Shown one piece after another: positions 13,360 through 57,100 of a stretch of 64,000 nucleotides of DNA. Made by a program: the position numbers and the translations under genes. This DNA comes from Octopus sinensis (taxonomy: Eukaryota). The first letter of the stretch is position 1. Each line of letters opens with the position of its first letter. The DNA is taken from NCBI RefSeq assembly GCF_006345805.1, contig NC_043015.1:28520001-28584000 (forward strand). Direction: 5' to 3'. The notes beneath the pieces are model-generated. The model had not been told where the DNA came from, ran no database searches, and saw only the letters and a program-made list of their open reading frames with translations.

Positions 13360-14399
13360 AGAAATTGTGTTGAAAACTGCCGTTCAAAAGGAATAGATCC
13401 TCCTTTTCTAATTGAAACCATTTTTCTGCAAGGCCTTCCACATGACCATATCACGCCATCCGACAAATTTTTTTTGGCTACATCCTTCAAGGAACATTTC
13501 TAGAGAATAGTAAGTTAAAGTGCGACCAGATTATTGATATTTTATATTATTGGGCAAAAGAAGATTTAGCAAAGGGAATAGCCCAGGAATGCCGTATAGA
13601 TTGGAGAAATTTTTGCTGTGATATATGTGCAGAATATTATGTTGCACAAAACATTAAGCTCGGAGGGCCAAACTGAATTGTAGAGATAGATGAAAGAGCG
13701 TTTGTTAGAAGAAAATATAATGTTGGCCATCAGGTTAAAACGCAGTGGGTTTTTGGTGCTTTGGAAAGGGATACTAGAAGATGGTATTGGTGGCAGTGGA
13801 AGATCGGACTGCGGACACTCTTTTAGAAATTGTACAAGAGCGTATATAGCCTGGTACAACTGTAATTTCTAACCTCTGGCGTTCATATAATACGCTCAAT
13901 CAGCTAGGATATAGGCATTTGACTGTGAATCATCATCATCATCATCATCATCGTTTAACGTCCGTTCTCCATGCTAGCATGGGTTGGACAGTTCGACCGG
14001 GGTTCTGGGAAGCCAGAAGGCTGCACCAGGCTCCAGTCTAATCTGGCAATGTTTCTACAGCTGGATGCCCTTCCTAACGCCAACCACTCCGTGAGTGTAG
14101 TGGGTGCTTTTTACGTGCCACCTGCACAGGTGCCAGGCGAGGCTGGCAACGGCCACGGTCAGATTGGCGTATTTTATGTGCCACCGGCAATAAATTTTGT
14201 TGATCCGGTAACATTTGCCACAACCAACCACATAGAATGTTTATGGAAGCATGTAAAGAATCGTAACAAAAGAGAAAATGGAACAGCCCGAAATTTACTT
14301 CAATCCCATCTCATTGAATTCATGTGGCATTATGAATTTAAGGACGAAATCTTTGGAAAGTTATTGGAACAAATTCAACATCTATACCCATGCATTTGA
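13360..14399 (+). pseudogene. Merlin/IS1595-like DDE transposase pseudogene with SINE insertion
   Basis: VEIDE, QWVFG and VNH..FVDP..TNHIECLWKHVK motifs; stops and a frameshift; SINE at ~13930-14188. Confidence 0.85.
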
Positions 14400-23487: not shown

Positions 23488-24651
23488 TTATGTTGAAGGA
23501 TTTGTTACTTTACCAATGAAATGGATCATTTTAGTTCGGTTGTCAACAATTAAAAATGTGAATGGATGATTGACATCAAAATCTATACGATTTATAAAAA
23601 TTTGTGCTGACGCGAAGGTCATGACTATTCCAGTTGCAGCTGCAGCTTCCGTTCCTTCTTCATTAACATCAACAAATGCTTTATGAAACATTTCACTGGC
23701 ATAAATATTCTTCTCAGCACCAGTCATTCCAGATAAATCAGCTTTTAGAGGATCAAAAATATCAGAGAGTCCAAGCTTTTTCAAAACATCACCCAACTGA
23801 AAACTACTCTCTAAACAAAATTTTGGCATATGTAATTTTAGACACATCATTTGAAATCCTTTTCTGTCAACAATGTCTTTGAGAAATTGAGCATTAATCT
23901 CCTTCTCTAAAGCAGCAAGACCATTGATTTCATTGGGAAGAATTACAAACATACTAAATGCTTTCCCTATATAAGGTAACTCAACCACTTTATAGTTGTC
24001 ACTTATTTTTGTATTAAAACCTTCAGATAGATACATAAAATCATGAGATACAGTCTTGTCAGAGCTTAAATAAAACTTTCTAGATGATGTTGCTTTTTTT
24101 CCGAATGTTTCAGCCCACGTTCCTTTGAAGTATACAGCATTAATAAGAACTAGAACCGATTGAGGTGTCAAACTTCCACTTGGTAACAGATCAGTAATTT
24201 TGTTATTTGTGTTATTCTTAACCCAATCATTAATAGTTATTCTTGTCTTCTCAGCATTTGTTATAAAGTCTACATTTTCAATATCTGAAAAGAAATATTT
24301 TACCATGTTGTTCTTGTAGTCTTCTGAAATAGGGAATTTTTCATTGGCACACAAACGATTCACTAAATTGGATGTGACGAGTTTATCTGAGTTTTTCAAA
24401 AGTGAAAAATATTCTTTAAAAGCTAAAGCTACAGAATCTGGATTTGATGTTATCTTCAAAACATTTTCAAACTGTTTGGAAGAGTTTTGTCTTGCTCCCA
24501 AATAAACCATTGATAAAACAGTAGCAACACTGAATGGTGACATGAAGACATTTTCATTGATTCCTGTAGCCACAGCTTGATAAAGACTGTTTGTAAAATA
24601 ATCAATTGAAGCGGCAAGGTTACTGATGTCTTGTTTCTTTGCTGAGTCCAT
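23488..24651 (-). CDS. serpin copy 1, 387 aa, intact, SERPINB/leukocyte elastase inhibitor-like; RCL TGIVMTFA|SAQ
   Basis: NVFMSPFS, INDWV, NAVYFKGTW, hinge EEGTEAAAAT, FDVNHPF..LI; no signal peptide; single coding exon. Confidence 0.97.
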   Translation of the reverse strand: MDSAKKQDISNLAASIDYFTNSLYQAVATGINENVFMSPFSVATVLSMVYLGARQNSSKQFENVLKITSNPDSVALAFKEYFSLLKNSDKLVTSNLVNRLCANEKFPISEDYKNNMVKYFFSDIENVDFITNAEKTRITINDWVKNNTNNKITDLLPSGSLTPQSVLVLINAVYFKGTWAETFGKKATSSRKFYLSSDKTVSHDFMYLSEGFNTKISDNYKVVELPYIGKAFSMFVILPNEINGLAALEKEINAQFLKDIVDRKGFQMMCLKLHMPKFCLESSFQLGDVLKKLGLSDIFDPLKADLSGMTGAEKNIYASEMFHKAFVDVNEEGTEAAAATGIVMTFASAQIFINRIDFDVNHPFTFLIVDNRTKMIHFIGKVTNPST

Positions 24652-24668
24652 ATTGTATACGATAGTAT

Positions 24669-24700: not shown

Positions 24701-25243
24701 CAGAATAAATTCTTGCAAACATTTCAAAATATTTTATTAGACATTACTGTAATTAGAGACATCTATAAAAGCAAAGTCTGAAATCTCTTCTGAACAAACT
24801 CTAATTTTAACTTTTACATGAACATATTTCTTAACATAACACAGAGTTAATGTGTTTTAAACAGTTTTTAAAACAATTAAAAATTTATATGATTAATTAA
24901 TATAACCATTTTTTTCTCCAATATTTATCTGATATTTGGCACATATCTTAAAAGTTTCATTTATAAGATGATGTTGGAACTTAACCATGTTTGCATTTCA
25001 GAGACAAATTTGAATGGAGCAGGTTTAGTTTTCATTTTTTGCATATATGGTAAGATAAGGTATCAAGTACAATGATATACTCCACCTGCTGAGAGCCTGG
25101 TCAAATACTTGCAACAAAATGACATCCTCAAAAAAGGCCTAAATGTGCCTGGAGGTGATGTTGAACTAATTAGTGTAATACCAAGCTAGACCGGATCCTG
25201 TAAACCTAGACTCAATGGTTAATATTTAGTTTGTAGAATGACC

Positions 25244-26039: not shown

Positions 26040-27060
26040 AAATTGTGTTGAAAACTGCCGTTCAAAAGGAAAAGATCCTCTTTTTCTGCAAGGCCTTCCA
26101 CATGACCATATCACGCCATCCGACAAATTTTTTTTGGCTACATCCTTCAAGGAACATTTCTAGAGAATAGTAAGTTAAAGTGCGAGCAGATTATTGATAT
26201 TTTATATTATTGGGCAAAAGAAGATTTAGCAAAGGGAATAGCCCAGGAATGCCGTATAGATTGGAGAAATTTTTGCTGTGATATATGTGCAGAATATTAT
26301 GTTGCACAAAACATTAAGCTCGGAGGGCCAAACTGAATTGTAGAGATAGATGAAAGAGCGTTTGTTAGAAGAAAATATAATGTTGGCCATCAGGTTAAAA
26401 CGCAGTGGGTTTTTGGTGCTTTGGAAAGGGATACTAGAAGATGGTATTTGGTGGCAGTGGAAGATCGGACTGCGGACACTCTTTTAGAAATTATACAAGA
26501 GCGTATATAGCCTGGTACAACTGTAATTTCTAACCTCTGGCGTTCGTATAATACGCTCAATCAGCTAGGATATAGGCATTTGACTGTGAATCATCATCAT
26601 CATCATCATCATCGTTTAACGTCCGTTCTCCATGCTAGCATGGGTTGGACGGTTCGACCGGGGTTCTGGGAAGCCAGAAGGCTGCACCAGGCTCCAGTCT
26701 AATCTGGCAATGTTTCTACAGCTGGATGCCCTTCCTAACGCCAACCACTCCGTGAGTGTAGTGGGTGCTTTTTACGTGCCACCTGCACAGGTGCCAGGCG
26801 AGGCTGGCAACGGCCACGGTCAGATTGGTGTATTTTATGTGCCACCGGCAATAAATTTTGTTGATCCGGTAACATTTGCCACAACCAACCACATAGAATG
26901 TTTATGGAAGCATGTAAAGAATCGTAACAAAAGAGAAAATGGAACAGCCCGAAATTTACTTCAATCCCATCTCATTGAATTCATGTGGCATTATGAATTT
27001 AAGGACGAAATCTTTGGAAAGTTATTGGAACAAATTCAACATCTATACCCATGCATTTGA
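26040..27060 (+). pseudogene. Merlin-like transposase pseudogene with SINE insertion
   Basis: paralogue of 13360-14399. Confidence 0.85.
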
Positions 27061-31138: not shown

Positions 31139-32299
31139 TCATGTTGTAGGATTTGTTACTTTACCAATGAAATGGATCATTTTAGTTTGGTTGTCAACAA
31201 TTAAAAATGTGAATGGGTGATTGACATCAAAATCCATAGGCATACCAAAATAGCCTGACAAATCCATCGCGAACATTCCAGTTGCAGCTGCAGCTTCCGT
31301 CCCTTCTTCATTAACTTCAACAAATGCTTTATGAAACATTTCACTGGCATAAATATTCTTCTCACCACCAGTCATTCCAGATAAATCAGCTTTTTGAGGA
31401 TCAAAAATATCAGAGAGTCCAAGCTTTATCAAAACTTCACCTAACTGAAAACTACTCTCTAAACGAAATTTTGGCATACGTAATTCTAGAAACAACCCTT
31501 CAAATCCTTTTCTGTCTATAATATCTTTGAGAAATTGAGCATTGATCTCCTTCTCTAAAGCAGCAAGACCATTGATTTCATTGGGAAGAATTACAAACAT
31601 ACTAAATGCTTTCCCTATATAACGTAACTCAACCACTTTATAGTTGTCACTTATTTTTGAATTAAAACCTTCAGATAGATACATAAAATCATGAGATACA
31701 GTCTTGTCAGAGCTTAAATAAAACTTTCTAGATGATGTTGCTCTTTCTGAGAATATTTCAGCCCACGTTCCTTTGAAGTATACAGCATTAATAAGAACTA
31801 GAACCGATTGAGGTGTCAAACTTCCACTTGGTAACAGATCAGTAATTTTGTTATTTGTGGTATTCTTAACCCAATCATTAATAGTTATTCTTGTCTTCTC
31901 AGCATTTGTTATAAAGTCTACATTTTCAATATCTGAAAAGAAATATTTTACCATGTTGTTCTTGTAGTCTTCTGAAATAGGGAATTTTTCATTGGCACAC
32001 AAACGATTCACTAAATTGGATGTGACGCGTTTATCTGAGTTTTTCAAAAGTGAAAAATATTCTTTAAAAGCTAAAGCTACAGAATCTGGATTTGATGTTA
32101 TCTTCAAAACATTTTCAAACTGTTTGGCAGAGTTTTGTCTTGCTCCCAAATAAACCATTGATAAAACAGTAGCAACACTGAATGGTGACATGAAGACATT
32201 TTCATTGATTCCTGTAGCCACAGCTTGATAAAGACTGTTTGTAAAATAATCAATTGAAGCAGCAAGGTTACTGATGTCTTGTTTCTTTGCTGAGTCCAT
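31139..32299 (-). CDS. serpin copy 2, 386 aa, intact; RCL TGMFAMDL|SGY
   Basis: same scaffold motifs as copy 1. Confidence 0.97.
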   Translation of the reverse strand: MDSAKKQDISNLAASIDYFTNSLYQAVATGINENVFMSPFSVATVLSMVYLGARQNSAKQFENVLKITSNPDSVALAFKEYFSLLKNSDKRVTSNLVNRLCANEKFPISEDYKNNMVKYFFSDIENVDFITNAEKTRITINDWVKNTTNNKITDLLPSGSLTPQSVLVLINAVYFKGTWAEIFSERATSSRKFYLSSDKTVSHDFMYLSEGFNSKISDNYKVVELRYIGKAFSMFVILPNEINGLAALEKEINAQFLKDIIDRKGFEGLFLELRMPKFRLESSFQLGEVLIKLGLSDIFDPQKADLSGMTGGEKNIYASEMFHKAFVEVNEEGTEAAAATGMFAMDLSGYFGMPMDFDVNHPFTFLIVDNQTKMIHFIGKVTNPTT

Positions 32300-32890
32300 A
32301 TTGTATACGATAGTATCTGGAGAATATAGAATATGAAGAGAAAATATACAGAATAAATTCTTGCAAACATTTCAAAATATTTTATTAGACATTACTGTAA
32401 TTAGAGACATCTATAAAAGCAAAGTCTGAAATCTCTTCTGATCAAACTCTAATTTTAACTTTTACATGAACATATTTTTAACATAACACAGAGTTAATGT
32501 GTTTTAAACAGTTTTTAAAATAATTAAAAATTTATATGATTAATTAATATAACCATTTTTTTCTCCAATATTTATCTGATATTTGGCACATATCTTAAAA
32601 GTTTCATTTATAAGATGATGTTGGAACTTAACCATGTTTGCATTTCAGAGACAAATTTGAATGGAGCAGGTTTAGTTTTCATTTTTTGCATATATGGTAA
32701 GATAAGGTATCAAGTACAATGATATACTCCACCTGCTGAGAGCCTGGTCAAATACTTGCAACAAAATGACATCCTCAAAAAAGGCCTTAATGTGCCTGGA
32801 GGTGATGTTGAACTAATTAGTGTAATACCAAGCTAGACCGGATCCTGTAAACCTAGACTCAATGGTTAATATTTAGTTTGTAGAATGACC

Positions 32891-33689: not shown

Positions 33690-34727
33690 AATTGTGTTGA
33701 AAACTGCCGTTCAAAAGAAATAGATCCTCCTTTTCTAATTGAAACCATTTTTCTGCAAGGCCTTCCACATGACCATATCACGCCATCCGACAAATTTTTT
33801 TTGGCTACATCCTTCAAGGAACATTTCTAGAGAATAGTAAGTTAAAGTGCGAGCAGATTATTGATATTTTATATTATTGGGCAAAAGAAGATTTAGCAAA
33901 GGGAATAGCCCAGGAATGCCGTATAGATTGGAGAAATTTTTGCTGTGATATATGTGCAGAATATTATGTTGCACAAAACATTAAGCTCGGAGGGCCAAAC
34001 TGAATTGTAGAGATAGATGAAAGAGCGTTTGTTAGAAGAAAATATAATGTTGGCCATCAGGTTAAAACGCAGTGGGTTTTTGGTGCTTTGGAAAGGGATA
34101 CTAGAAGATGGTATTTGGTGGCAGTGGAAGATCGGACTGCGGACACTCTTTTAGAAATTATACAAGAGCGTATATAGCCTGGTACAACTGTAATTTCTAA
34201 CCTCTGGCGTTCGTATAATACGCTCAATCAGCTAGGATATAGGCATTTGACTGTGAATCATCATCATCATCATCATCATCGTTTAACGTCCGTTCTCCAT
34301 GCTAGCATGGGTTGGACGGTTCGACCGGGGTTCTGGGAAGCCAGAAGGCTGCACCAGGCTCCAGTCTAATCTGGCAATGTTTCTACAGCTGGATGCCCTT
34401 CCTAACGCCAACCACTCCGTGAGTGTAGTGGGTGCTTTTTACGTGCCACCTGCACAGGTGCCAGGCGAGGCTGGCAACGGCCACGGTCAGATTGGTGTAT
34501 TTTATGTGCCACCGGCAATAAATTTTGTTGATCCGGTAACATTTGCCACAACCAACCACATAGAATGTTTATGGAAGCATGTAAAGAATCGTAACAAAAG
34601 AGAAAATGGAACAGCCCGAAATTTACTTCAATCCCATCTCATTGAATTCATGTGGCATTATGAATTTAAGGACGAAATCTTTGGAAAGTTATTGGAACAA
34701 ATTCAACATCTATACCCATGCATTTGA
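33690..34727 (+). pseudogene. Merlin-like transposase pseudogene with SINE insertion
   Basis: paralogue of 13360-14399. Confidence 0.85.
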
Positions 34728-41170: not shown

Positions 41171-41382
41171 GAATAATGATTAAATATTTACTGAGATGCT
41201 TTATTAATATAAACAGAAATAAAACTTACAAGCATTGATTTCACTTTATTCAATAAGTAAATAACGTTTACAGGCAACAATAAGTTTATTGTTAAAATAA
41301 TAAAAGATACGTTCAAGAGTGTAATATTTTTCCGTAAATGTACAACACATACAAATTGATAATGTTGATTAAAATTAAAACT

Positions 41383-41713
41383 TATTTACGTTATTTACAA
41401 TTGACAAGAATTTGTCCTCATCTTGTTTGTTGTTAACACATTTCAGCTGATATTCTATCTAGCATTCATCAGGTGTCTTGGGGAAATTTCGAACCTGGGT
41501 TCTCATTCCTAAGGTATTTTTCGATGTTGCTGTTGTTGTTATCATCATCATCATCATCATCATCATCATTATTCAGGCCACTGCCTGGAATTGAACGTGG
41601 GCATATGGCGTAGTCGTTAAGAGCACAGGCTACTAATCCCAAGATTCCAAGTTCGATTCCAGGCAGTGACCTAAATAATGATAATAATAATAGTAATAAT
41701 AATAATAATAATC

Positions 41714-41752
<39 letters not shown>

Positions 41753-42297
41753 CAGTACCAGGCAGTGGCTCTCATGGCTTCTCATCTTAACTGATTGGAA
41801 GTGTTATCATGTACATTGTTTTGTCTTGGTATGAAAGATTGGCTTACAAAAATATTCTGCTCAATACCACAGATTTGCTTGTCAGTTGTTTGACCTCAAC
41901 CAGTTGATCATGTCCCTTAGTGGCTGATGATATGTGCATCTCTGATTACGAGCAGAAGTAGTGGGGGAGCATCATAGCCATGTGTTGAGAGGGACTCTTC
42001 AGGGTTTGAATAATTCACCTCTGGAAACATGGGTGTTTCGTTCAACATCCTTAAACAACCCTTATTCAGGGACCTTTTGAGCTGGATGGGCTACTCGACC
42101 AGAAGAAAATTCTAAGTGGGCCCCACCTGCAAGGTCATGTGCTGTTGATCTTGATATGAGATCACCATGTCGCACACATATTGTTGTGATGCATGTGCCT
42201 AGTGTACCCTTATCAGACGGGTAGTCATGATGGGTATACTGGGCTTCGTATATTCTACACTAGTATCACTTTAATGGCATGCACTACTCTCTCACTC

Positions 42298-42338
<41 letters not shown>

Positions 42339-42514
42339 CAAAATCGCAAAATACCTTAGGAATGAGAGCCCAGGTTCGAAATTTCCCCAAGACACCTGAT
42401 GAAGGCTGGAGGGTATATCAGCTGAATCATTGTGTTAATAACAAACAAGATGAGGACAAATATCCATCAATTGTAAATAATGTATTTAATTCCTCATCTC
42501 TTAAATATAGAACT
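41383..42514. mobile_element. Penelope-like remnant with inverted terminal segments
   Basis: ~130 bp inverted repeats 41390-41520/42350-42482 containing cacctgatgaa; direct repeat aaattaaaact on both flanks; (AAT)n, (CAT)n and SINE pieces inside. Confidence 0.55.
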
Positions 42515-42697
42515 AAATTAAAACTATTCTTATAATCTTTCATTGCATAGATATGTCCATGGTTCTGCACAATTACAACTATAATGGTTTAAGTCATTCT
42601 ACTCAAAAATATTGTAAATGGATTTGCTGAGTTACGTTGTCTACATAATACAATCTAGTATCCCATAAGAGAAAAATCTTTGACAAGACAATATCAT

Positions 42698-42873
42698 CTA
42701 TATCGTGGGGTTTGTTACTTTACCAATGAAATGGATCATTTTAGTTCGGTCATCAACAACTAAAAACGTGAATGGGTGATTGACATCAAATTGCATCCCA
42801 ATTCTCGACATATAATTTGAGACCACCATTCCACTTGCAGCAGCAGCTTCCGTTCCTTCGTATATAGTCGTAT
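42698..42873 (-). pseudogene. serpin copy 3: orphan acceptor + hinge/RCL/C-terminus cassette
   Basis: ttctccag|atacgactatatac joined in frame to GAAGGAACG (EGTEAAAASGMVVSNYMSRIGMQFDVNHPF...KVTNPTI*); ATG and ~1 kb of scaffold deleted. Confidence 0.9.
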
Positions 42874-42929
42874 CTGGAGAATATAGAATATGAAGAGAAA
42901 ATATACAAAATAAATTTGTATAAACATTT

Positions 42930-43235
42930 GAGGCTACTGACCAGATCTCTAGATGGTGCAAAGTTCCCTTTCATCCCAAGGTAACATGGTGGTGGAACAA
43001 TGTAGTTGACAGGGTCATTAGGGAAAAGAAACAGGCATGGAAAGACTGGAAGAACAGTGGTAGCAGGGAATTGTATCAGATCGCCAGAAGGGAAACTAGG
43101 AGACAGGTTTACTTAGTCAGAGGGGAAGCAGATAAGAAAAAAATTTGTCAATGTTCTGTGTCGTGAGGACCAAAGACTTAAAGTGTTTTGTGTTGCAAGA
43201 CAGTGTGTGAGAGAGAATCATGATGTTATAGGAGA
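42930..43235 (+). mobile_element. RTE-clade LINE ORF2 fragment
   Basis: translates to TWWWNNVVDRVIREKKQAWKDWK. Confidence 0.7.
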
Positions 43236-43321: not shown

Positions 43322-44126
43322 TACTCTCTCTTTTACTCTTTTACTTGTTTCAGTCATTTGACTGCGGCCATGCTGGAGCACCGCCTTTAGTCGAGCAAAT
43401 CGACCCCGGGAATTATTCTTTGTATGCCCAGTACTTATTCTATCAGTCTCTTTTTGCCGAACCGCTAAGTGACGGGGACGTAAACACACCAGCATCGGTT
43501 GTCAAGCAATGCTAGGTGGACAAACACAGACACACAAACATATACACACACATACATATATACGACAGGCTTCTTTCAGTTTCCGTCTACCAAATCCACC
43601 CACAAGGCATTGGTCGGCCCGGGGCTATAGCAGAAGACACTTGCCCAACCCGGAACCATGTGCTTGGTTAGCAAGCTACTTACCACACAGCCACTCTGCG
43701 CCTATATAAATATTTCTGTATAAATATTTCAAAATGTTGAGTTAGTATGAAGGACATTGAGTAATTCTGCTTCAAAAAAATTAGATGAAAAACAAAACAA
43801 GAATAAAATAACTTGTTGGATTTATGAATGTTAAAAATCTCCAAACAATTATCAGATAATAGATGAACTGAGAACAATGGAATATTAGGCGTAGGAGTGG
43901 CTGTGTGGTAAGTAGCTTGTTAACCAACCACATGGTTCCAGGTTCATCCCACTGTGTGGCATCTTGGGCAAATGTCTTCTGCTATAGCCCCGGGCCGACC
44001 AATGCTGTGTGAGTGGATTTGGTAGACGGAAACTGAAAGAAGCCTGTCGTATATATATATGTATGTGTGTGTTTGTGTGTCTGTGTTTGTCCCCCTAGCA
44101 TTGCTTGACAACCGATGCTGGTGTGT
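43322..44126. mobile_element. two head-to-head SINEs (43322-43703 -, 43886-44126 + truncated)
   Basis: same family as 3197-3592; the second is cut off at the junction with the serpin-4 3' flank. Confidence 0.8.
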
Positions 44127-44664
44127 AAAAGTTTTGTAATGCCACAATTATTGAAACAATGTAATTATTTTATCAAGATCCAAGACATAATTACGAAGGG
44201 TGAACACGGGGGCTTAAAAATTTCGAATGTCTAAATTTAAAACAAAGAATATAAAAGCCAGATGCAATCAACACATACAAAATAATGGAATATTTACTGA
44301 GATACTTTATTAATATGAAGCATACAAATATTGATTTCACTTCATTCAACCAGAAAATAACGTTTACAGGCAACAGTAGATATATTGTTAAAATAGTAAA
44401 CTTGCAAAGAAAGGATACTTTAAAAAGTGTCAAAATTTTCTGTCAATGTATGGCATATACAAATTCATAATATTGATTTAGATTAATGTGGTATTATAAT
44501 ATATCATTGAATAGATATGACCTTGGTTCTACACAATTACAATTATGATGTCCTAAGTCATTTTACTAAAAAAACCATTCTAAATAAATTTGTTCAGTTA
44601 CATTCTCCACATAATACAATGTAGTATTCCCTAAGAGGGAAATCTTTGACAGGGCAATATCATC

Positions 44665-45818
44665 TCATGTTGTAGGATCTGTTACTTTACCAATGAAATG
44701 GATCATTTTAGTTCGGTCATCAACAACTAAAAACGTGAATGGGTGATTGACATCAAATTGCATCCCAATTCTCGACATATAATTTGAGACCACCATTCCA
44801 CTTGCAGCAGCAGCTTCCGTTCCTTCTTCATTAACATCAACAAATGCTTTATGAAACATTTCACTGGCATAAATATTCTTCTCACCACCAGTCATCCCAG
44901 ATAAATCAGCTTTTAGAGGATCAAAAATATCAGGGAGTCCAAGCTTTTTCAAAACATCACCCAACTTAAAACTACTCTCTAATGAAATTTTGGCATATTT
45001 AATTCTAGAAGCATCATTTTAAATCCTTTTCTGTCAACAATGTCTTTGAGAAATTGAGCATTAATCTCCTTCTCTAAAGCAGCAAGGCCATTGATTTCAT
45101 TGGGAAGAATTACAAACATACTAAATGCTTTTCCTATATAAGGTAACTCAACCACTTTATAGTTGTCGCTTATTTTGGTATTAAAATCTTCAGATATATA
45201 CATAAAATCATGAGATACAGTCTTGTCAGAGCTTAAATAAAACTTTCTAGATGAAGTTGCTTCTTCTGAGAATATTTCAGCCCACGTTCCTTTGAAGTAT
45301 ACAGCATTAATAAGAACTAGAACCGATTGAGGTGTCAAACTTCCACTTGGTAACAGATCAGTAATTTTGTTATTTGTGTTATTCTTAACCCAATCATTAA
45401 TAGTTATTCTTGTCTTCTCAGCATTTGTCATAAAGTCTACATTTTCAATATCTGAAAAGAAATATTTTACCATGTTTTTCTTGTAGTCTTCTGAAATAGG
45501 GAATTTTTCATTGGCACACAAACGATTCACTAAATTGGATGTGACAAGTTTATCTGAGTTTTTCAAAAGTGAAAAATATTCTTTAAAAGCTAAAGCTACA
45601 GAATCTGGATTTGATGTTATCTTCAAAACATTTTCAAACTGTTTGGAAGAGTTTTGTCTTGCTCCCAAATAAACCATTGATAAAACAGTAGCAACACTGA
45701 ATGGTGACATGAAGACATTTTCATTGATTCCTGTAGCCACAGCTTGATAAAGACTGTTTGTAAAATAATCAATTGAAGCAGCAAGGTTACTGATGTCTTG
45801 TTTCTTTGCTGAGTCCAT
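44665..45818 (-). pseudogene. serpin copy 4, full length with one -1 frameshift (~44981); RCL SGMVVSNY|MSR
   Basis: 1154 nt; plus strand ctctaatgaaa versus ctctaaacgaaa in intact copies; may be an assembly indel. Confidence 0.85.
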
Positions 45819-46410
45819 ATTGTATACGATAGTATCTGGAGAATATAGAATATGAAGAGAAAATATACAGAATAAATTCTTGCAAACATTTCAAAATATT
45901 TTATTAGACATTACTGTAATTAGAGACATCTATAAAAGCAAAGTCTGAAATCTCTTCTGATCAAACTCTAATTTTAACTTTTACATGAACATATTTCTTA
46001 ACATAACACAGAGTTAATGTGTTTTAAACAGTTTTTAAAATAATTAAAAATTTATATGATTAATTAATATAACCATTTTTTTCTCCAATATTTATCTGAT
46101 ATTTGGCACATATCTTAAAAGTTTCATTTATAAGATGATGTTGGAACTTAACCATGTTTGCATTTCAAAGACAAATTTGAATGGAGCAGGTTTAGTTTTC
46201 ATTTTTTGCATATATGGTAAGATAAGGTATCAAGTACAATGATATACTCCACCTGCTGAGAGCCTGGTCAAATACTTGCAACAAAATGACATCCTCAAAA
46301 AAGGCCTTAATGTGCCTGGAGGTGATGTTGAACTAATTAGTGTAATACCAAGCTAGACCGGATCCTGTAAACCTAGACTCAATGGTTAATATTTAGTTTG
46401 TAGAATGACC

Positions 46411-46689
46411 TGTGGGATGACGTCAGCAGCTGGGTGCGTTGACCGGAAGCTGGGGCAACCGGAAGGGGCTGCTGTCAGGCGTGCGCAGGCAGCAGTCAAT
46501 TGGGCCTTTCCAACGTGGGTCGTCCAAATGACAAGACGTGTGAGGATGGTGGCGAAGGGTCTGGGTGAGCAGCTGCTATCTTTAGTGTTCGGGTTGGAGC
46601 TGTGTCGAAGGATTAGCTACCACAGAAGGGTCTCCATCACGAGGAAGAGAAGGTAGGTGCCTTTATATTCAAATCGTGCACACACCACA
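46411..46689. mobile_element. solo-LTR-like insertion (copy)
   Basis: TGTGG...CCACA, TSD TGACC. Confidence 0.85.
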
Positions 46690-47343
46690 TGACCGTGTGA
46701 AGGAGAGGTGACGAGAATGTCTCCTTTAGTACGCCGCACGGTCGATTACAATAAATAGGAAAAAGGATGAATGAGTATGAATGCCAGCAGGAAAAGAGAG
46801 ACACAACCAGTAGAATGTTTAAGAGAAAGATTTTATTGATAGGTTAACATGTGTGTCTGTGTGTGTGTCATGTATATATAATAATAGACAGGCCGTCATG
46901 TATACATAATGTGTGTGCAGAAACGTGGATGTATGCGTGTGCGATAAGTACAGAGCATTAAAAGAGTCTATAATAGGACGTTAGAAGAATGCAATGCAGA
47001 GCCAGTTGAGGCACATGTCATGCGTGAAGCTGTGGCTACTATGCAGAGCCGGTTACTTGGTACAGAAGGTTCTCGCAGGTTGTATTTGCTGTCAACCATG
47101 GTGAAATAATTCATGAACAGTGTTGAGTAGAGGCCATTGATTGGTTAAAATCTGAAAAATTAAACTACGTTAAACTTACAAATTACAATTTTCTCAAGAG
47201 AGCCAGAAATTGTGTTGAAAACTGCCGTTCAAAAGGAATAGATCCTCCTTTTCTAATTGAAACCATTTTTCTGCAAGGCCTTCCACATGACCATATCACG
47301 CCATCCGACAAATTTTTTTTGGCTACATCCTTCAAGGAACATT

Positions 47344-47726
47344 TCTACATTTTCAATATCTGAAAAGAAATATTTTACCATGTTGTTCTTGTAGTCTTCT
47401 GAAATAGGGAATTTTTCACTGGCATACAAACGATTCACTGAATTGAATGTGACGAGTTTATCTGAGTTTTTCAAAAGTGAAAAATATTCTTTAAAAGCCA
47501 AAGCTACAGAATCTGGATTTGATGTTATCTTCAAAACATTTTCAAACTGTTTGGCAGAGTTTTGTCTTGCTCCCAAATAAACCATTGATAAAACAGTAGC
47601 AACACTGAATGGTGACATGAAGACATTTTCATTGGTTCCTGTAGCCACAGCTTGATAAAGACTGTTTGTAAAATAATCAATTGAAGCAGCAAGGTTACCG
47701 ATGTCTTGTTTCTCTGCTGAGTCCAT
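47344..47726 (-). pseudogene. serpin copy 5, N-terminal third only, fused to Merlin sequence
   Basis: MDSAEKQDIGN...SDIENV then Merlin-unit sequence; tcta microhomology at 47344-47347. Confidence 0.9.
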
Positions 47727-48271
47727 ATCGTATACGATAGTGTCTAGAGAATATAGAATATGAAAAGAAAATATACAAAATAAATTCTGGCAAACATTTC
47801 AGTATATTGTAGAAGACATCTATGAAAGCAATGTCTGAAATCTCTTCTGTTCAAACTTTAAATTTAACTTTTACATGAACATATTTTGTACGGTAACACT
47901 CAATATGATTTAAATAGATTTTAAAATAATTAAAAATTTATAAGATTTAATAATATAACCATTTCTTTCTTCCATTCTTTATGTGGCTTTTGGCACATAC
48001 CTTAAAATGATGTTGAAATGTTTTAGCTTAAATACGGTGATTATTTACAAAATAGATTTGAACATTATGTATCACATTTAGAATACAGTTAGGAAACAAT
48101 AAAATTTGGGTTTTTGCATAAATCATTTCAGACCATTTTCATACAGAATTCTTAGATCACATTAGTGTGTTTTACACTCTCTTGAAATATTGAACAGGAA
48201 CTGTTTTTCAGGAAATTCTTTTGCATTTCATCTCTTCATATTGTATATTCTTTAGATGCCACGGAAATAAT

Positions 48272-49304
48272 ATGGACTAAGCAAAGAAACAAGACTTCGG
48301 TAACCTCGCTGCTTCAGTTGATTATTGTACAAAGAGTCTTTTTCAAGCTGTGTCTACAGGAACCGTTGAAAATGTTTTCATGTCACCATTCAATGTTGCT
48401 ACCGTTTTATCAATGGTTTATTCTGGAGCAAGACAAAACTCTGCCAAACAATTGAAAATATTTTGAAAATAACTTTAAATACAGATCCTGTAATTTGAGG
48501 TTTTAAAGAATATTTTTCACTTTTGAAACACTCAGATGAACTTATTGCATTGAATTCAGTCAATTGTTTTAGTGCCAATGAAAAATTTCGTATTTCAGAA
48601 GACTAAAAGAACATTATTGCAAAAAATTTCTTTTCAGATATTGAAAATGTAGACTTCATGACAAATATTGGAAAAGGAAGAATTAATATTAATTACAATG
48701 TTGTAAGACAACAAGATGCTAGAATTGTTAGTATGCTGGGCAAAATACTTAGTAGCAATTTGTCCATCTTGACATTCTGGAGTTGACATTGTCATCCTTT
48801 AGGGTTTGACAAAATAAGTACCAATTGAGCACTTGTGTTGCTGTAATTGATTTACCCCTACAATTAAATTGCTGGCCTTGCACCAAAATTTGAAAGCAGT
48901 TTTAATGATTGTGCTGAAAATAACACAAATAACATAATTACCGATCTCCTAACAATTTGAAGTTGACACCTCAGTCGGTTCTAGTTCTTATTAATGCTGT
49001 GTACTTGAAAAGAATATGGCATAAAATATTCCTATAAAAAGCAACATCATCTAGAAAGACAATTTTAGCACAAAAATAAGCAACAGCTCTACAGTTGTTG
49101 AGTTACCTTATATAGGAAAAGCATTTAGTATGTTTGTAATTCTTCCCAATGAAATCAATGGCCTTAATGCTTTAGTGAAGGAGATTAATGCTCAATTTCT
49201 CAAAGATATTGTAGACAGAAAAGGGATTTGAAATGATGCTTCTAGAATTAAATATGCCAAAATTTCGTTTAGAGAGTAGTTTTAAGTTGGGTGATGTTTT
49301 GAAA
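48272..49304 (+). pseudogene. serpin copy 6, inverted and decayed
   Basis: atggactaagcaaag start with stop, many stops and indels, SINE at ~48700-48895, internal deletion; ends at ...FKLGDVLK without an RCL. Confidence 0.9.
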
Positions 49305-51936: not shown

Positions 51937-53100
51937 TTATGTTGTAGGATTTGTTACTTTACCAATGAAATGGATCATTTTAGTTCGGTTGTCAACAATT
52001 AAAAATGTGAATGGGTGATTGACATCAAAATCCAAGGGATTTATAACAAGTCTTCCTTTACATGGCACTAAGCGGGCCTTAGTTGCAGCTGCAGCTTCCG
52101 TTCCTTCTTCATTAACTTCAACAAATGCTTTATGAAACATTTCATTGGCATAAATATTCTTCTCACCACCAGTCATTCCAGATAAATCAGCTTTTAGAGG
52201 ATCAAAAATATCAGAGAGTCCAAGCTTTTTCAAAACTTCACCCAACTGAAAACTACTCTCTAAACGAAATTTTGGCATATGTAATACTAGAAGCATCATT
52301 TTAAATCCTTTTCTATCTATAATATCTTTGAGAAATTGAGCATTAATCTCCTTCTCTAAAGCAGCAAGACCATTGATTTCATTGGGAAGAATTACAAACA
52401 TACTAAATGCTTTCCCTATATAAGGTAACTCAACCACTTTATAGTTGTCGCTTATTTTTGTATTAAAATCTTCAAATTTAAACATAAAATCATGAGATAC
52501 AGTCTTGTCAGAGCTTAAATAAAACTTTCTAGATGATGTTGCTTTTTTTCCGAATGTTTCAGCCCACGTTCCTTTGAAGTATACAGCATTGATAAGAACT
52601 ACAACCGATTGAGGTGTCAAACTTCCACTTGGTAACAGATCAGTAATTTTGTTATTTGTGTTATTCTTTACCCAGTCATTAATAGTAATTCTTGTCTTCT
52701 CAGCATTTGTTATGAAGTCTACATTTTCAATATCTGAAAAGAAATATTTTACCATGTTGTTCTTGTAGTCTTCAGAAATAGGGAATTTTTCATTGGCGCA
52801 CAAACGATTCACTAAATTGGATGTGACAAGTTTATCTGAGTTTTTCAAAAGTGAAAAATATTCTTTAAAAGCCAAAGCTACAGAATCTGGATTAGAAGTT
52901 ATCTTCAAAACATTTTCAAACTGTTTGGCAGAGTTTTGTCTTGCTCCCAAATAAACCATTGATAAAACAGTAGCAACACTGAATGGTGACATGAAGACAT
53001 TTTCATTGGTTCCTGTAGCCACAGCTTGATAAAGACTGTTTGTAAAATAATCAATTGAAGCAGCAAGGTTACCGATGTCTTGTTTCTTTGCTGAGTCCAT
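51937..53100 (-). CDS. serpin copy 7, 387 aa, intact; RCL TKARLVPC|KGR
   Basis: same scaffold; start taken at MDSAKK because the ATG at 53148 lies upstream of the conserved acceptor. Confidence 0.97.
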   Translation of the reverse strand: MDSAKKQDIGNLAASIDYFTNSLYQAVATGTNENVFMSPFSVATVLSMVYLGARQNSAKQFENVLKITSNPDSVALAFKEYFSLLKNSDKLVTSNLVNRLCANEKFPISEDYKNNMVKYFFSDIENVDFITNAEKTRITINDWVKNNTNNKITDLLPSGSLTPQSVVVLINAVYFKGTWAETFGKKATSSRKFYLSSDKTVSHDFMFKFEDFNTKISDNYKVVELPYIGKAFSMFVILPNEINGLAALEKEINAQFLKDIIDRKGFKMMLLVLHMPKFRLESSFQLGEVLKKLGLSDIFDPLKADLSGMTGGEKNIYANEMFHKAFVEVNEEGTEAAAATKARLVPCKGRLVINPLDFDVNHPFTFLIVDNRTKMIHFIGKVTNPTT

Positions 53101-53997
53101 ATTGTATTTGGTAGTGTCTGGAGAATATAGAATATGAAGAGAAAACATATGAAATAAATTCTTGCAAACATTTCAAAATATTTTATTAGACATTACTTCT
53201 GATCAAACTCTAATATTAACTTTTACAGGAACATATTTCTTAACATAACACAGAGTTGATGTGTTTTAAACACTTTTAAAAATAATTAAAAATTTATATA
53301 TACCATTTTTTCTCCAATATTTATCTGATATTTGGCACATATCTTAAAAGTTTCATTTATAAGATGATGTTGGAACTTATCCATGTTTGCATTTCAGAGA
53401 CAAATTTGAATGGAGCAGGTTTAGTTTTCATTTTTTGCATATATGGTAAGATAAGGTATCAAGTATAATGATATACTCCACCTGCTGAGAGCCTGGCCAA
53501 ATATTTACAACAAAATGACATCTTCAAAAAAGGCCTCCATGTGCCTGGAGGTGATGTTGAACTAATTAGTGAGTAAAGGGAACTGGTTCTTTTTTACACT
53601 TTTGGGGTGCAACTTGGGTGCAACACAATTTCCTTTCTTTTTTGTTTCTAGAAAATACCAGTCGGTAACAAAACGCAACTTTAAAAATATATACGATTCT
53701 TTATTCTCTTCTTCACAAATGAAGTACGATGGTATACTGGTATCCCCCTAGTTCAACACAGCAAAGCTGAATTCTAACGTTTGTAAGATTCTTACAATTC
53801 AGCAGCAACAGAACAGGTCAAATCCTAAGCGTCTGGGACAGGAGAATAGGCTGATCACACGTTTAAAAATACATCCTTTCTCTTCTATCGCTGTGTCTCA
53901 AGTCAACGACGCTATTAAGGAACACGATAGAATTCCTTTCCCAGTCTCTAGCGCATGTGCATGAGGAAACTTTCTTATGCCTTTCCAGAAGGTTCCA

Positions 53998-54186: not shown

Positions 54187-57100
54187 TCAATGGTCAATAT
54201 TTAGTTTGTAGAATGACCGTGTGAAGGAGAGGTGACGAGAATGGCTCCTTTAGTACGCCGCACGGTCAATTACAATAAATAGGAAAAAGGATGAATGAGT
54301 ATGAATGCCAGCAGGAAAAGAGAGACACAACCAGTCGAATGTTGAAGAGAAAGATTTTATTGATAGGTTAACATGTGTGTCTGTGTGTGTGTCATGTATA
54401 CATAATAATAGACAGGCCGTCATGTATACATAATGTGTGTGCAGAAACGTGGATGTATGCGTGTGCGATAAGTACAGAGCATTGAAAGAGTCTATAATAG
54501 GACGTTAGAAGAATGCAATGCAGAGCCAGTTGAGGCACGTGTCATGCGTGAAGCTGTGGCTACTATGCAGAGCCGGTAACTTGGTACAGAAGGTTCTCGC
54601 AGGTTGTATCTGCTGTTAACCATGGTGAAATAATTCATGAACAGTGTTGAGTAGAGGCCATTGATTGGTTAAAATCTGAAAAATTAAACTACGTTAAACT
54701 TACAAATGACAATTTTCTCAAGAAAGCCAAGAGAAAAAATGTTTTATTTTGACACATTCTACCAGTATACGAAGTTTAAAAGTGTTTAGTTAACTAGAAA
54801 TTGTGTTGAAAACTGCCGTTCAAAAGGAAAAGATCCTCCTTTTCTAATTGAAACCATTTTTCTGCAAGGCCTTCCACATGACCATATCATGCCATCCGAC
54901 AAATTTTTTTTGGCTACATCCTTCAAGGAACATTTCTAGAGAATAGTAAGTTGAAGTGTGAGCAGATTATTGATATTTTATATTATTGGGCAAAAGAAGA
55001 TTTAGCAAAGGGAATAGCCCAGGAATGCTGTATATACTGGAGAAATTTTTGCTGTGATATATGTGCAGAATATTATGTTGCACAAAACATTAAGCTCGGA
55101 GGGCCAAACCGAATTGTAGAGATAGATGAAAGCGCGTTTGTTAGAAGAAAATATAATGTTGGCCATCAGGTTAAAATGCAGTGGGTTTTTGGTGCTTTGG
55201 AAAGGGATACTAGAAGATGGTTTTTGGTGGCAGTGGATGATCAGACTGCGGACACTCTTTTAGAAATTATACAAGAGCGTATATAGCCTGGTACAACTGT
55301 AATTTCTGACCTCTGGCGTTCGTATAATACGCTCAATCACCTAGGATATAGGCATTTGACTGTGAATCATTCAATAAATTTTGTTGATCCGGTAACATTT
55401 GCCACAACCAACCACATAGAATGTTTATGGAAGCATGTAAAGAATCGCAACAAAAGAGAAAATGGAACAGCCCGAAATTTACTTCAATCCCATCTCATTG
55501 AATTCATGTGGCGTTATAAATTTAAGGACGAAATCTTTGGAAAGTTATTGGAACAAATTCAACATCTATACCCATGCATTTGAAACGTTACAGAATAGAA
55601 GTATCTACAAAGCATTTGTTTTATATTTCGTTAAATTCTTTCAGTTGAAAATTATATTTTTATATTCTAAATAATTTGCAATTTCAGAAAATATATTAAC
55701 TTTGCGTTTTTTAATTTGATAAATTCTACGGAAACAAACAAGTGACGTCAGATTGAAGTCACACTTTCTTTTACTTTCCTCCTGACAGCTAATTCCGTAG
55801 TGGTGCCTGTAACAGGATGTAGCGCAACTACGTGCTCTTTTGTTTTCTTACACACACGCCGCCTCAATTCAGGTGGGGTAAACATTTAAAATAACATTTT
55901 TTTGTTGATGCTCGTATCCCACCAATGGAGCACGCATGTGGCCCATTGGTATCATCATTAAAGGGGATGAGGAGTAAAAAAAAAAAAATCATAAGTTTTC
56001 CAAACCATTTTTTCATAACAAGATGTTTCCCATCATTTCGAAGGTTGTGGTGAAAAACAATCGCGAAAACCCTGTCAAAAGGGAGAAATTCCAACTTATG
56101 TGGTCTTCTTGATCGGAAGCTCCTCTCCCTGCTCCTTAAAAATTTTTCCCCAAAAAATTTCTTTATAATCTTAATCCATGCCGTTTGAAATGTATTTATA
56201 TAAAATTTCACTAAAAGATATCCATTTTCCTGAAAGTTATGAGGGAAAAAATCGGATTGTGTGAATTTTGCGAAAGTCCTCTCCTCATCCCCGTTTCGTT
56301 TGCGCAAATTTTGTTTTCCAGATTCGTTAACGTTTTTCTTCTTGTTCTGGTGGCCGGGTATTAAACTTGTAGTGTGATGGATGAAGAAGACAACAGAAAA
56401 AGAAGCAACGGGAGAAAGAATAACTAAAGGCCTTACCTTTTCGAAATCAGCGGTCTCTTTCACGAATTCTACACGTCTTATCGCTTTCCCGTCTATGTTG
56501 GAACTGTCCTGCTTGACAAACTCCTGCTGCGCATGCATTCTGCAGTCTTCCGCCCACTTCATCTATCACCAGTGCACCACTTAGCTCATCACATCCTATA
56601 ACACCGACTGCCAACACCACAAAACTAGGTAGTAACCGATTCGCTGGCAGAAAAGTTAGCACGACGGGCGAAATGCTTAGCGGTATTTCCTCAGCGATAC
56701 GTTGTTAGTTCAAATTCCGCCGAGGTCGACTTTGCCTTTCATCCTTTCGGGGTCGATAAATTAAGTACCAGTTACGCACTGGAGTCGATGTAATGGACTG
56801 AATACCTATGTCTGTCCTTGTTTGTCCCCTCTGTGTTTAGCCCCTTGTGGGTAATAAAGAAATAGGTATCCCAGACACTCCTATTAGATTGATACAGAAA
56901 TTTAACCGTTTTCTTATTTTTTAAGGTAGGATATGATTTTAGGAAGATTTGGCTGGTCTATTGACCACGTAGGGTTTTTCTCTTTGACTCATATCTAGAC
57001 TTTGATGTCAGCCAAGCTTTTTAAAGAATGGAAGTTTTCGAAAATGAACACGTTAATAATAAATAATTTCCATTATTTTATTTCATACAAAAACATTCGG

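Follow-up and report, generated by a model that had tools for sequence, protein, structure and literature searches.

A truncated, probably decayed RCL exon in a tandem serpin array of Octopus sinensis, and a signal-peptide exon that gene models share among whole-serpin exons

The serpin array and its truncated unit

The window analysed here, 64,000 nucleotides of Octopus sinensis (C19:28,520,001-28,584,000, contig NC_043015.1), carries minus-strand reading frames that belong to the serpin family (Pfam PF00079). Mapped with 200 kb of neighbouring DNA added, these frames form part of an array of 24 acceptor-bearing serpin copies and one 5' fragment, with 19 minus-strand units between 28.543 and 28.667 Mb and five more units in an inverted block; a separate serpin gene at 28.736 Mb stands outside the 19-unit array. 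Every unit consists of one coding exon preceded by a near-identical splice acceptor, with 17 pyrimidines at -5 to -25 in 24/24 copies. The full frame is kept in 10 of the 19 same-strand units and broken in the remaining nine, some of which are counted as broken for single-base breaks that may be assembly errors. Divergence among 10 distinct copies averages 36.3% in the loops compared to 4.3% in the bodies. Three whole-serpin exons in the window are intact and carry a different RCL (51940..53117, 31142..32316 and 23491..24668, all on the minus strand), the last of these being the final unit of the array.

Further serpin-derived sequence lies at 47344..49304, namely a 5' serpin fragment with an acceptor (47344-47802) and inverted serpin debris (48199-49304). 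Inverted serpin fragments adjoin several exons, both here and as matching pieces between the proximal units, and together with sense pre-mRNA they could form double-stranded RNA. Upstream of distal exons we noted a 150-nt cluster-specific block (53390-53540, 46161-46307, 32641-32787 and 24994-25140), which has 13 genomic matches, all inside the array, and precedes most distal units and not the cassette described below. Read by eye, the block ends at a donor-like site and holds a short in-phase ATG frame, and it could represent a private 5' exon of the distal units.

The cassette, on the minus strand, begins with a polypyrimidine tract and AG splice acceptor of phase 1 (42874..42900), parent-derived and matching the full-length parents. 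There follow a 14-nt exon stub (42860..42873), equivalent to the spacer ahead of the ATG in intact copies, a deletion junction with GA microhomology (42858..42859), and a segment encoding the serpin hinge, the RCL, s1C/s4B/s5B and the stop codon (42698..42859). The stub joins the hinge codons directly, such that the whole hinge is present along with five unrelated residues, and a 57-codon open frame (42701-42871) runs to a TAG stop (42698-42700). The encoded peptide matches positions 320-370 only of Pfam PF00079 (E 3.4e-12), its best match among serpin C-termini in the PDB has an E value of 2.2e-07, and its P1 residue, counting from the hinge, is presumably Tyr. The cassette lacks the inhibitory serpin fold of ~370 residues with sheet A. 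A predicted structure of the peptide alone, made without an alignment (pLDDT 63.9, pTM 0.34), shows one hairpin in a poorly defined chain, with an N-terminal half of low confidence.

Two full-length copies of the same type reveal the origin of the cassette. One is an intact parent exon with the same RCL, 84 kb away (C19:28647016-28648181), whose protein is 100% identical to the record 'leukocyte elastase inhibitor isoform X3 [Octopus sinensis]'. The other (C19:28,615,744-28,617,111) is frameshifted and shares 99.64% identity with the intact one. Across ~2.3 kb, with intron and flank included, the cassette shows 98.37% and 98.54% identity to these two parents, from which it is separated by one gap of exactly 996 nt (332 codons), in frame; the deletion removed the ATG and the serpin body and left a 2-nt GA overlap at the junction. 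An earlier reading of the window from its letters alone (hereafter the sequence-only reading) had described a deletion of ~1 kb with an intact acceptor, the same phase, an open frame and a 3' flank, all of which agrees with our comparison. Its description of the cassette as an orphan does not, since the same RCL is found in the intact parent, in the frameshifted full-length copy and in three pseudo-exons, the immediate neighbour among them. The cassette would accordingly bring no new specificity, its RCL being that of an intact exon.

A 24-mer spanning the junction has two matches in the genome, whereas a control pattern has none. The second match is another copy of the cassette on the plus strand (C19:28,710,336-765), 99.0% identical to the first. 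Both copies have in common 24 fixed differences from the parents, and both lack an upstream AG at -45 that is present in 22/22 other copies. The surroundings of the second copy, C19:28,701,089-28,732,555, are a 31-kb inverted near-copy (99.3-99.8%) of the window from 20.7 to 54 kb, beside an N gap; over 25.4 kb the identity of this block to the window is 99.35%. The block, and hence the second cassette, may be an uncollapsed haplotype. A further near-copy in tandem, of the window from 20 to 53 kb at an offset of ~54 kb, occupies C19:28,594,000-28,625,000; it has a full-length exon at the cassette's place and several single-base frameshifts, and could reflect a haplotype or insufficient polishing.

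Past the stop codon lie a proximal 3' flank of parent type (42485..42697, minus strand, ATTAAA 208 nt past the stop) and a MITE-like insertion with inverted arms of ~185 nt that are 83% alike, common to the cassette and the 3' flanks of both parents (41387..42484). A distal 3' flank, homologous in all paralogues, is found beyond these (41183..41378, minus strand), with three AATAAA motifs 1408-1493 nt past the stop. On the intron side, both cassette copies and neither parent contain a high-copy repeat of ~390 nt (43323..43713), followed by the last parent-type piece of intron (43714..43887, minus strand). As the sequence upstream of 43887 switches to the 3' flank of the neighbouring unit, the cassette lacks a private upstream region.

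A signal-peptide exon upstream of the array

In database proteins the residues ahead of the internal Met are translated and preceded by a leader of 23 aa, which by eye has the look of a signal peptide. The leader exon comprises 72 nt on the minus strand (C19:28,679,454-28,679,525), 116 kb upstream of the cassette and outside the window, and ends in a phase-1 donor that agrees with 8/9 consensus positions. This is a phase-compatible donor beyond the window that the sequence-only reading had missed. The genome holds one such leader and one 75% paralogue, the latter serving the separate serpin gene. Downstream of the leader, at distances of 12-135 kb, are 19 same-strand acceptors of phase 1, an arrangement of one leader and many acceptors; the inverted block has no leader exon on its strand. 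The separate gene (C19:28,735,099-28,738,601) has its own leader exon, and its spacer before the internal ATG is 9 nt shorter, in frame.

RefSeq isoforms X1, X2 and X3 carry the same leader with three different RCLs and serpin bodies. The body of isoform X3 is the cassette's parent, 31 kb from the leader across five other units, while isoform X2 has the appearance of a chimera between two neighbouring units. In O. bimaculoides, two models likewise place one leader on two bodies and RCLs. Given these isoforms and models, the databases present at least the proximal array as a single leader that alternates between whole-serpin terminal exons. The names of the RefSeq isoforms imply this layout, and a literature search that covered journals other than subscription ones found no paper describing this locus or layout. 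Use of the leader is documented up to 31 kb only, in gene models. Annotation treats the distal units, those of the window among them, as separate genes without a leader, and most have their own 150-nt upstream block; we therefore infer rather than observe use of the leader at 116 kb, where the cassette lies. Joined conceptually to the leader, the cassette yields an open product, a precursor of 81 aa, of which 58 aa follow the leader; read by itself, the exon has its first ATG at base 45, in frame.

The Drosophila loci lola and mod(mdg4) are known examples of a constant 5' exon combined with variable terminal exons. As at the octopus locus, a shared 5' exon is joined there to one of many terminal domain exons. 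The octopus locus differs in that the shared part is the signal peptide only and an ATG is retained in every terminal exon.

Probable decay of the cassette, and the possibility of a used mini-exon

The junction peptide occurs in two gene models from Octopus vulgaris, CAI9736908.1 and CAI9736906.1, out of 149 proteins available, and in both the cassette stands behind the same frameshifted neighbour. These multi-domain models (1736 and 1126 aa), in which the cassette appears as an internal exon, were taken to be ab initio concatenations and were used solely as evidence of the existence of the DNA. A preprint dates the split of O. sinensis and O. vulgaris to ~2.5 My ago (bioRxiv 10.1101/2023.05.16.540928). 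Together with the O. vulgaris models, this date implies that the deletion is likely older than the split.

We further examined seven of 24 available sequencing read sets (X3, X4, X5, X6, X16, X17 and X18), in the form of simplified contigs from which rare branches are dropped and with an 'RNA' label that is a guess; the junction was found in two of the seven. In X4 a contig bridges the junction, extending 139 letters to one side and 57 to the other. In X3, which is from another study, it is covered by a contig free of mismatches, with 30 letters on one side and 43 on the other, one letter below the threshold for counting as bridging. Among the matches listed for X5, X6, X16, X17 and X18 there was no junction-crossing contig, and holes between contigs prove nothing; in X17, a contig over the RCL runs on into the full-length serpin body. 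The X4 junction contig (guessed RNA) is unspliced, passing through the acceptor into the intron, and has a depth of 16 compared to 762 for a paralogue contig. A join to the leader is absent from all three contigs listed for X4, a weak result as contigs lose rare branches. Protein searches likewise returned no product of this kind: the cassette peptide had no candidate among proteins of 31-100 aa, and the leader region had none at E<=0.001 among those of 30-226 aa, blanks that are no proof of absence. The upstream part of the X4 contig matches the intron of two other units, which we regard as a possible graph jump at a shared stretch of ~40 nt and not as a new structure.

The deletion is thus neither unique, nor private to one species, nor unsupported by reads, the circumstances in which the sequence-only reading was to be given up: it is duplicated, it occurs in O. 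vulgaris models and it is present in read sets.

Our analysis suggests that, within a birth-and-death array, the cassette is probably a decayed unit without function, which arose from one deletion and was subsequently duplicated. The observations on which this reading builds directly are the parent, the size and junction of the deletion, the acceptor, the RCL, the two copies, the O. vulgaris models and the breakage of about half the array. An intact whole-serpin exon would have been duplicated, and a single deletion, likely through end joining at the 2-nt GA microhomology, would then have taken 996 nt from the duplicate. The frame would have been kept by chance, the cassette would have been carried along by segmental duplication, and at most it would now be read through at a low level into unspliced RNA. 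The cassette resembles an unprocessed pseudo-exon in being a collinear copy of a functional locus, with flanks and a disabling lesion. Of the fallback offered by the sequence-only reading, a donor or a pseudogene, the pseudogene is the better supported part, while a silent donor is unneeded, as the intact parent explains the conversion tract described below equally well.

Several lines of evidence favour decay: the identity of 98.4-98.5% to the parents with a single gap, the breakage of 9/19 units, the redundancy of the RCL, the lack of a constraint signal, the unspliced X4 contig and the low-confidence model of the peptide. Regarding constraint, fixed differences number 1/174 in the exon and 23/2150 in the flanks (p=0.45, at the low power of 174 sites), with no excess conservation seen. 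The cassette is identical to O. vulgaris at 49/49 amino acids, and the frameshifted neighbour equals that with 104/104. A neutral frame of 57 codons would stay stop-free with a probability of 0.84-0.94 at 1-3% divergence, considering substitutions only. The in-frame state of the deletion carries little weight, since a random clean deletion keeps the frame one time in three, and the same is true for the intact acceptor, simply inherited from the parent exon.

Other observations speak against decay. First, an intact acceptor is combined with a phase that fits the leader donor and with a terminal position, on account of which a spliced product would escape nonsense-mediated decay. Second, the cassette has persisted in two species for at least ~2.5 My, and none of 49 amino-acid positions has changed. 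Third, the loss of the upstream AG at -45 could favour the cassette acceptor. Lastly, a junction contig is present in a probable RNA run (X4).

Tandem serpin clusters with hypervariable RCLs, such as the rodent SERPINA clusters, evolve by birth and death. The octopus array resembles them in its near-identical bodies, divergent loops, broken copies and conversion tract. It differs from them in that each unit is one coding exon with an acceptor ahead of it, and at least the proximal units share a leader in gene models. The cassette by itself is most likely ordinary decay, and what is notable at this locus is the shared-leader layout of the database models along with the RCL-sized conversion tract.

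A used mini terminal exon, onto which the leader would splice to give the 81-aa precursor and a secreted hinge/RCL/C-terminal peptide of 58 aa, is unlikely to us, but it is the alternative that fares best. Such a peptide might act as a protease decoy, as a modulator of sibling serpins that inserts into sheet A, or as a signalling peptide, and if spliced the mini-exon would be a genome-encoded secreted RCL peptide. It would draw on a 72-nt leader with a strong phase-1 donor (8/9) and an open 81-aa product. The leader is moreover the sole one in the genome besides the 75% paralogue of the separate gene, and RefSeq isoforms X1-X3 and the two O. bimaculoides models do place it on different bodies. 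Against this stand the absence of a leader join from the three X4 contigs, the lack of any sign of selection, and the distance, the leader being documented to 31 kb with the cassette at 116 kb among distal units annotated as leaderless.

A partial precedent comes from human SERPINA1, for which short transcripts (ST1C4 and ST1C5) and C-terminal peptides are described (PMC5249162). There, as with the cassette, a 5' exon joined to the C-terminal coding part would give rise to a short C-terminal peptide. The SERPINA1 forms, as presented in that source, result from exon skipping in an intact gene and are detected as RNA, whereas the cassette is shortened by a genomic deletion, its peptide would comprise a signal peptide besides hinge and RCL, and spliced RNA was absent from the X4 contigs. 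The broadest version of such a scheme, in which one signal-peptide exon picks among up to 19 whole-serpin exons with loops reshuffled by conversion, and the cassette is a live mini-exon, a decoy or anti-serpin unchanged in two species, strikes us as improbable.

Exchange of loops between units

Adjacent to the cassette is a frameshifted serpin exon with the same RCL (psi, 44494..45835, minus strand), which contains an RCL-sized gene-conversion tract of the cassette/parent type (44680..44826, minus strand). Parent-private states are found at 15/15 sites inside the tract and 0/41 outside (Fisher p=6e-14). The tract spans from the hinge to just before the stop and is also present in the two duplicates of psi (C19:28,618,339 and 28,707,374); all three tract-bearing exons are frameshifted. 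In trees built from 14 of the 24 copies, near-duplicates being left out, the neighbour and its duplicates group with the cassette and the parent by RCL and with other copies by 3' flank. The pattern identifies an RCL-sized conversion with the neighbour as recipient, and an O. bimaculoides protein having a similar loop and a parent-type end supports this direction. The tract provides direct evidence of loop swapping between paralogues.

That the cassette serves as a silent donor, a compact RCL template converting the loops of other serpin exons, seems to us rather improbable. In psi and both of its duplicates the tract is of exactly the cassette type, and the start of the cassette falls within the interval allowed for the 5' end of the tract. 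Yet the cassette does not differ from the intact parent anywhere in the tract, which makes the donor indistinguishable and leaves no cassette-private marker. The tract also occurs beside a full-length copy (C19:28618339, beside 28615744), suggesting that conversion preceded the deletion, though this full-length copy, at 99.64% identity to the intact parent, could be a product of overwriting itself. For both reasons the intact parent is the simpler donor. Moreover, 3/3 recipients are broken, the tract is found in 0/17 other copies, and an intact exon already carries this RCL. One tract was found in all, and it bears no cassette-private marker.

The sequence-only reading had proposed, as one possibility, a nascent alternative RCL exon of the type known from Manduca, whereby an internal donor of an upstream serpin exon would splice to the cassette acceptor and swap the loop. 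Our data do not support this proposal, which we consider very improbable. The cassette does have the right orientation, an intact phase-1 acceptor and an open frame, and as an acceptor-bearing exon from RCL to C-terminus it lies downstream of, and collinear with, a serpin body. Weak phase-1 GT dinucleotides are also present 13, 20 and 21 codons before the hinge (5-6/9 consensus positions), and a further one 8 codons into the hinge in some copies. A donor keeping both fold and length must, however, lie five codons before the hinge, and this position reads G|TT in 19/19 full-length copies scanned, with a donor in 0/19 (the scan covered 19 of 24 copies, leaving out the two cassettes and three copies whose hinge is unlike the search motif). 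In this respect the sequence-only reading, which had seen no phase-compatible hinge donor in the paralogues, was correct. By established serpin structure, use of the GT sites at -21, -20 or -13 would delete strand 5A, and use of that at +8 would double the hinge. In addition, the cassette RCL equals that of the nearest upstream unit, itself frameshifted, such that no different loop would be provided. With no length-preserving donor, the hinge included in the cassette and the RCL redundant, the idea of a nascent exon was not sustained.

Mutually exclusive RCL exons are found in Anopheles SRPN10 and Drosophila Spn42Da. The constant part of the insect genes is the whole serpin body, with a variable exon from the end of the hinge, while in octopus the shared part is the signal peptide only and the variable exon is a whole serpin; the cassette itself has the hinge and no usable internal donor. 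One signal peptide on different whole serpins, as gene models in two octopus species have it, is therefore the inverse of the insect design. In the account given by PMC10513286, insect serpins (Manduca serpin-1 and PpSerpin-1 of Pteromalus) obtain several RCLs from one gene via alternative 3' exons with a phase-1 junction, and secreted and intracellular forms by N-terminal choice. The alternative exons of PpSerpin-1 begin at the end of the hinge according to the same source, which argues against the cassette, containing the hinge, as an exon of this type (PMC10513286).

An assembly error, for which one could invoke the highly repetitive array, the 31-kb inverted near-copy adjoining an N gap (99.35% over 25.4 kb), single-base indels in several units and the lack of a junction contig in 5/7 read sets, is already refuted for the junction itself, which occurs in two O. 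vulgaris models and in X4 and X3 from different studies, and given the 24 fixed differences and the repeat insertion peculiar to the cassettes we regard it as almost certainly wrong.

Broken transposase-like frames, which we take to be of the DDE type (Merlin/ISXO2-like), lie between serpin units at 54882-55580 of the window, with related ones near 13959-14396, 26620-27057 and 34287-34724. They may seed unequal crossovers, for example at 46689-47347, where a serpin exon is interrupted. A related serpin copy with 76% identity to the query protein is located on C1 (C1:23,608,694-23,617,373), with inverted debris nearby, and further serpin paralogues are found on C19 at 48.85 Mb and 38.86 Mb.
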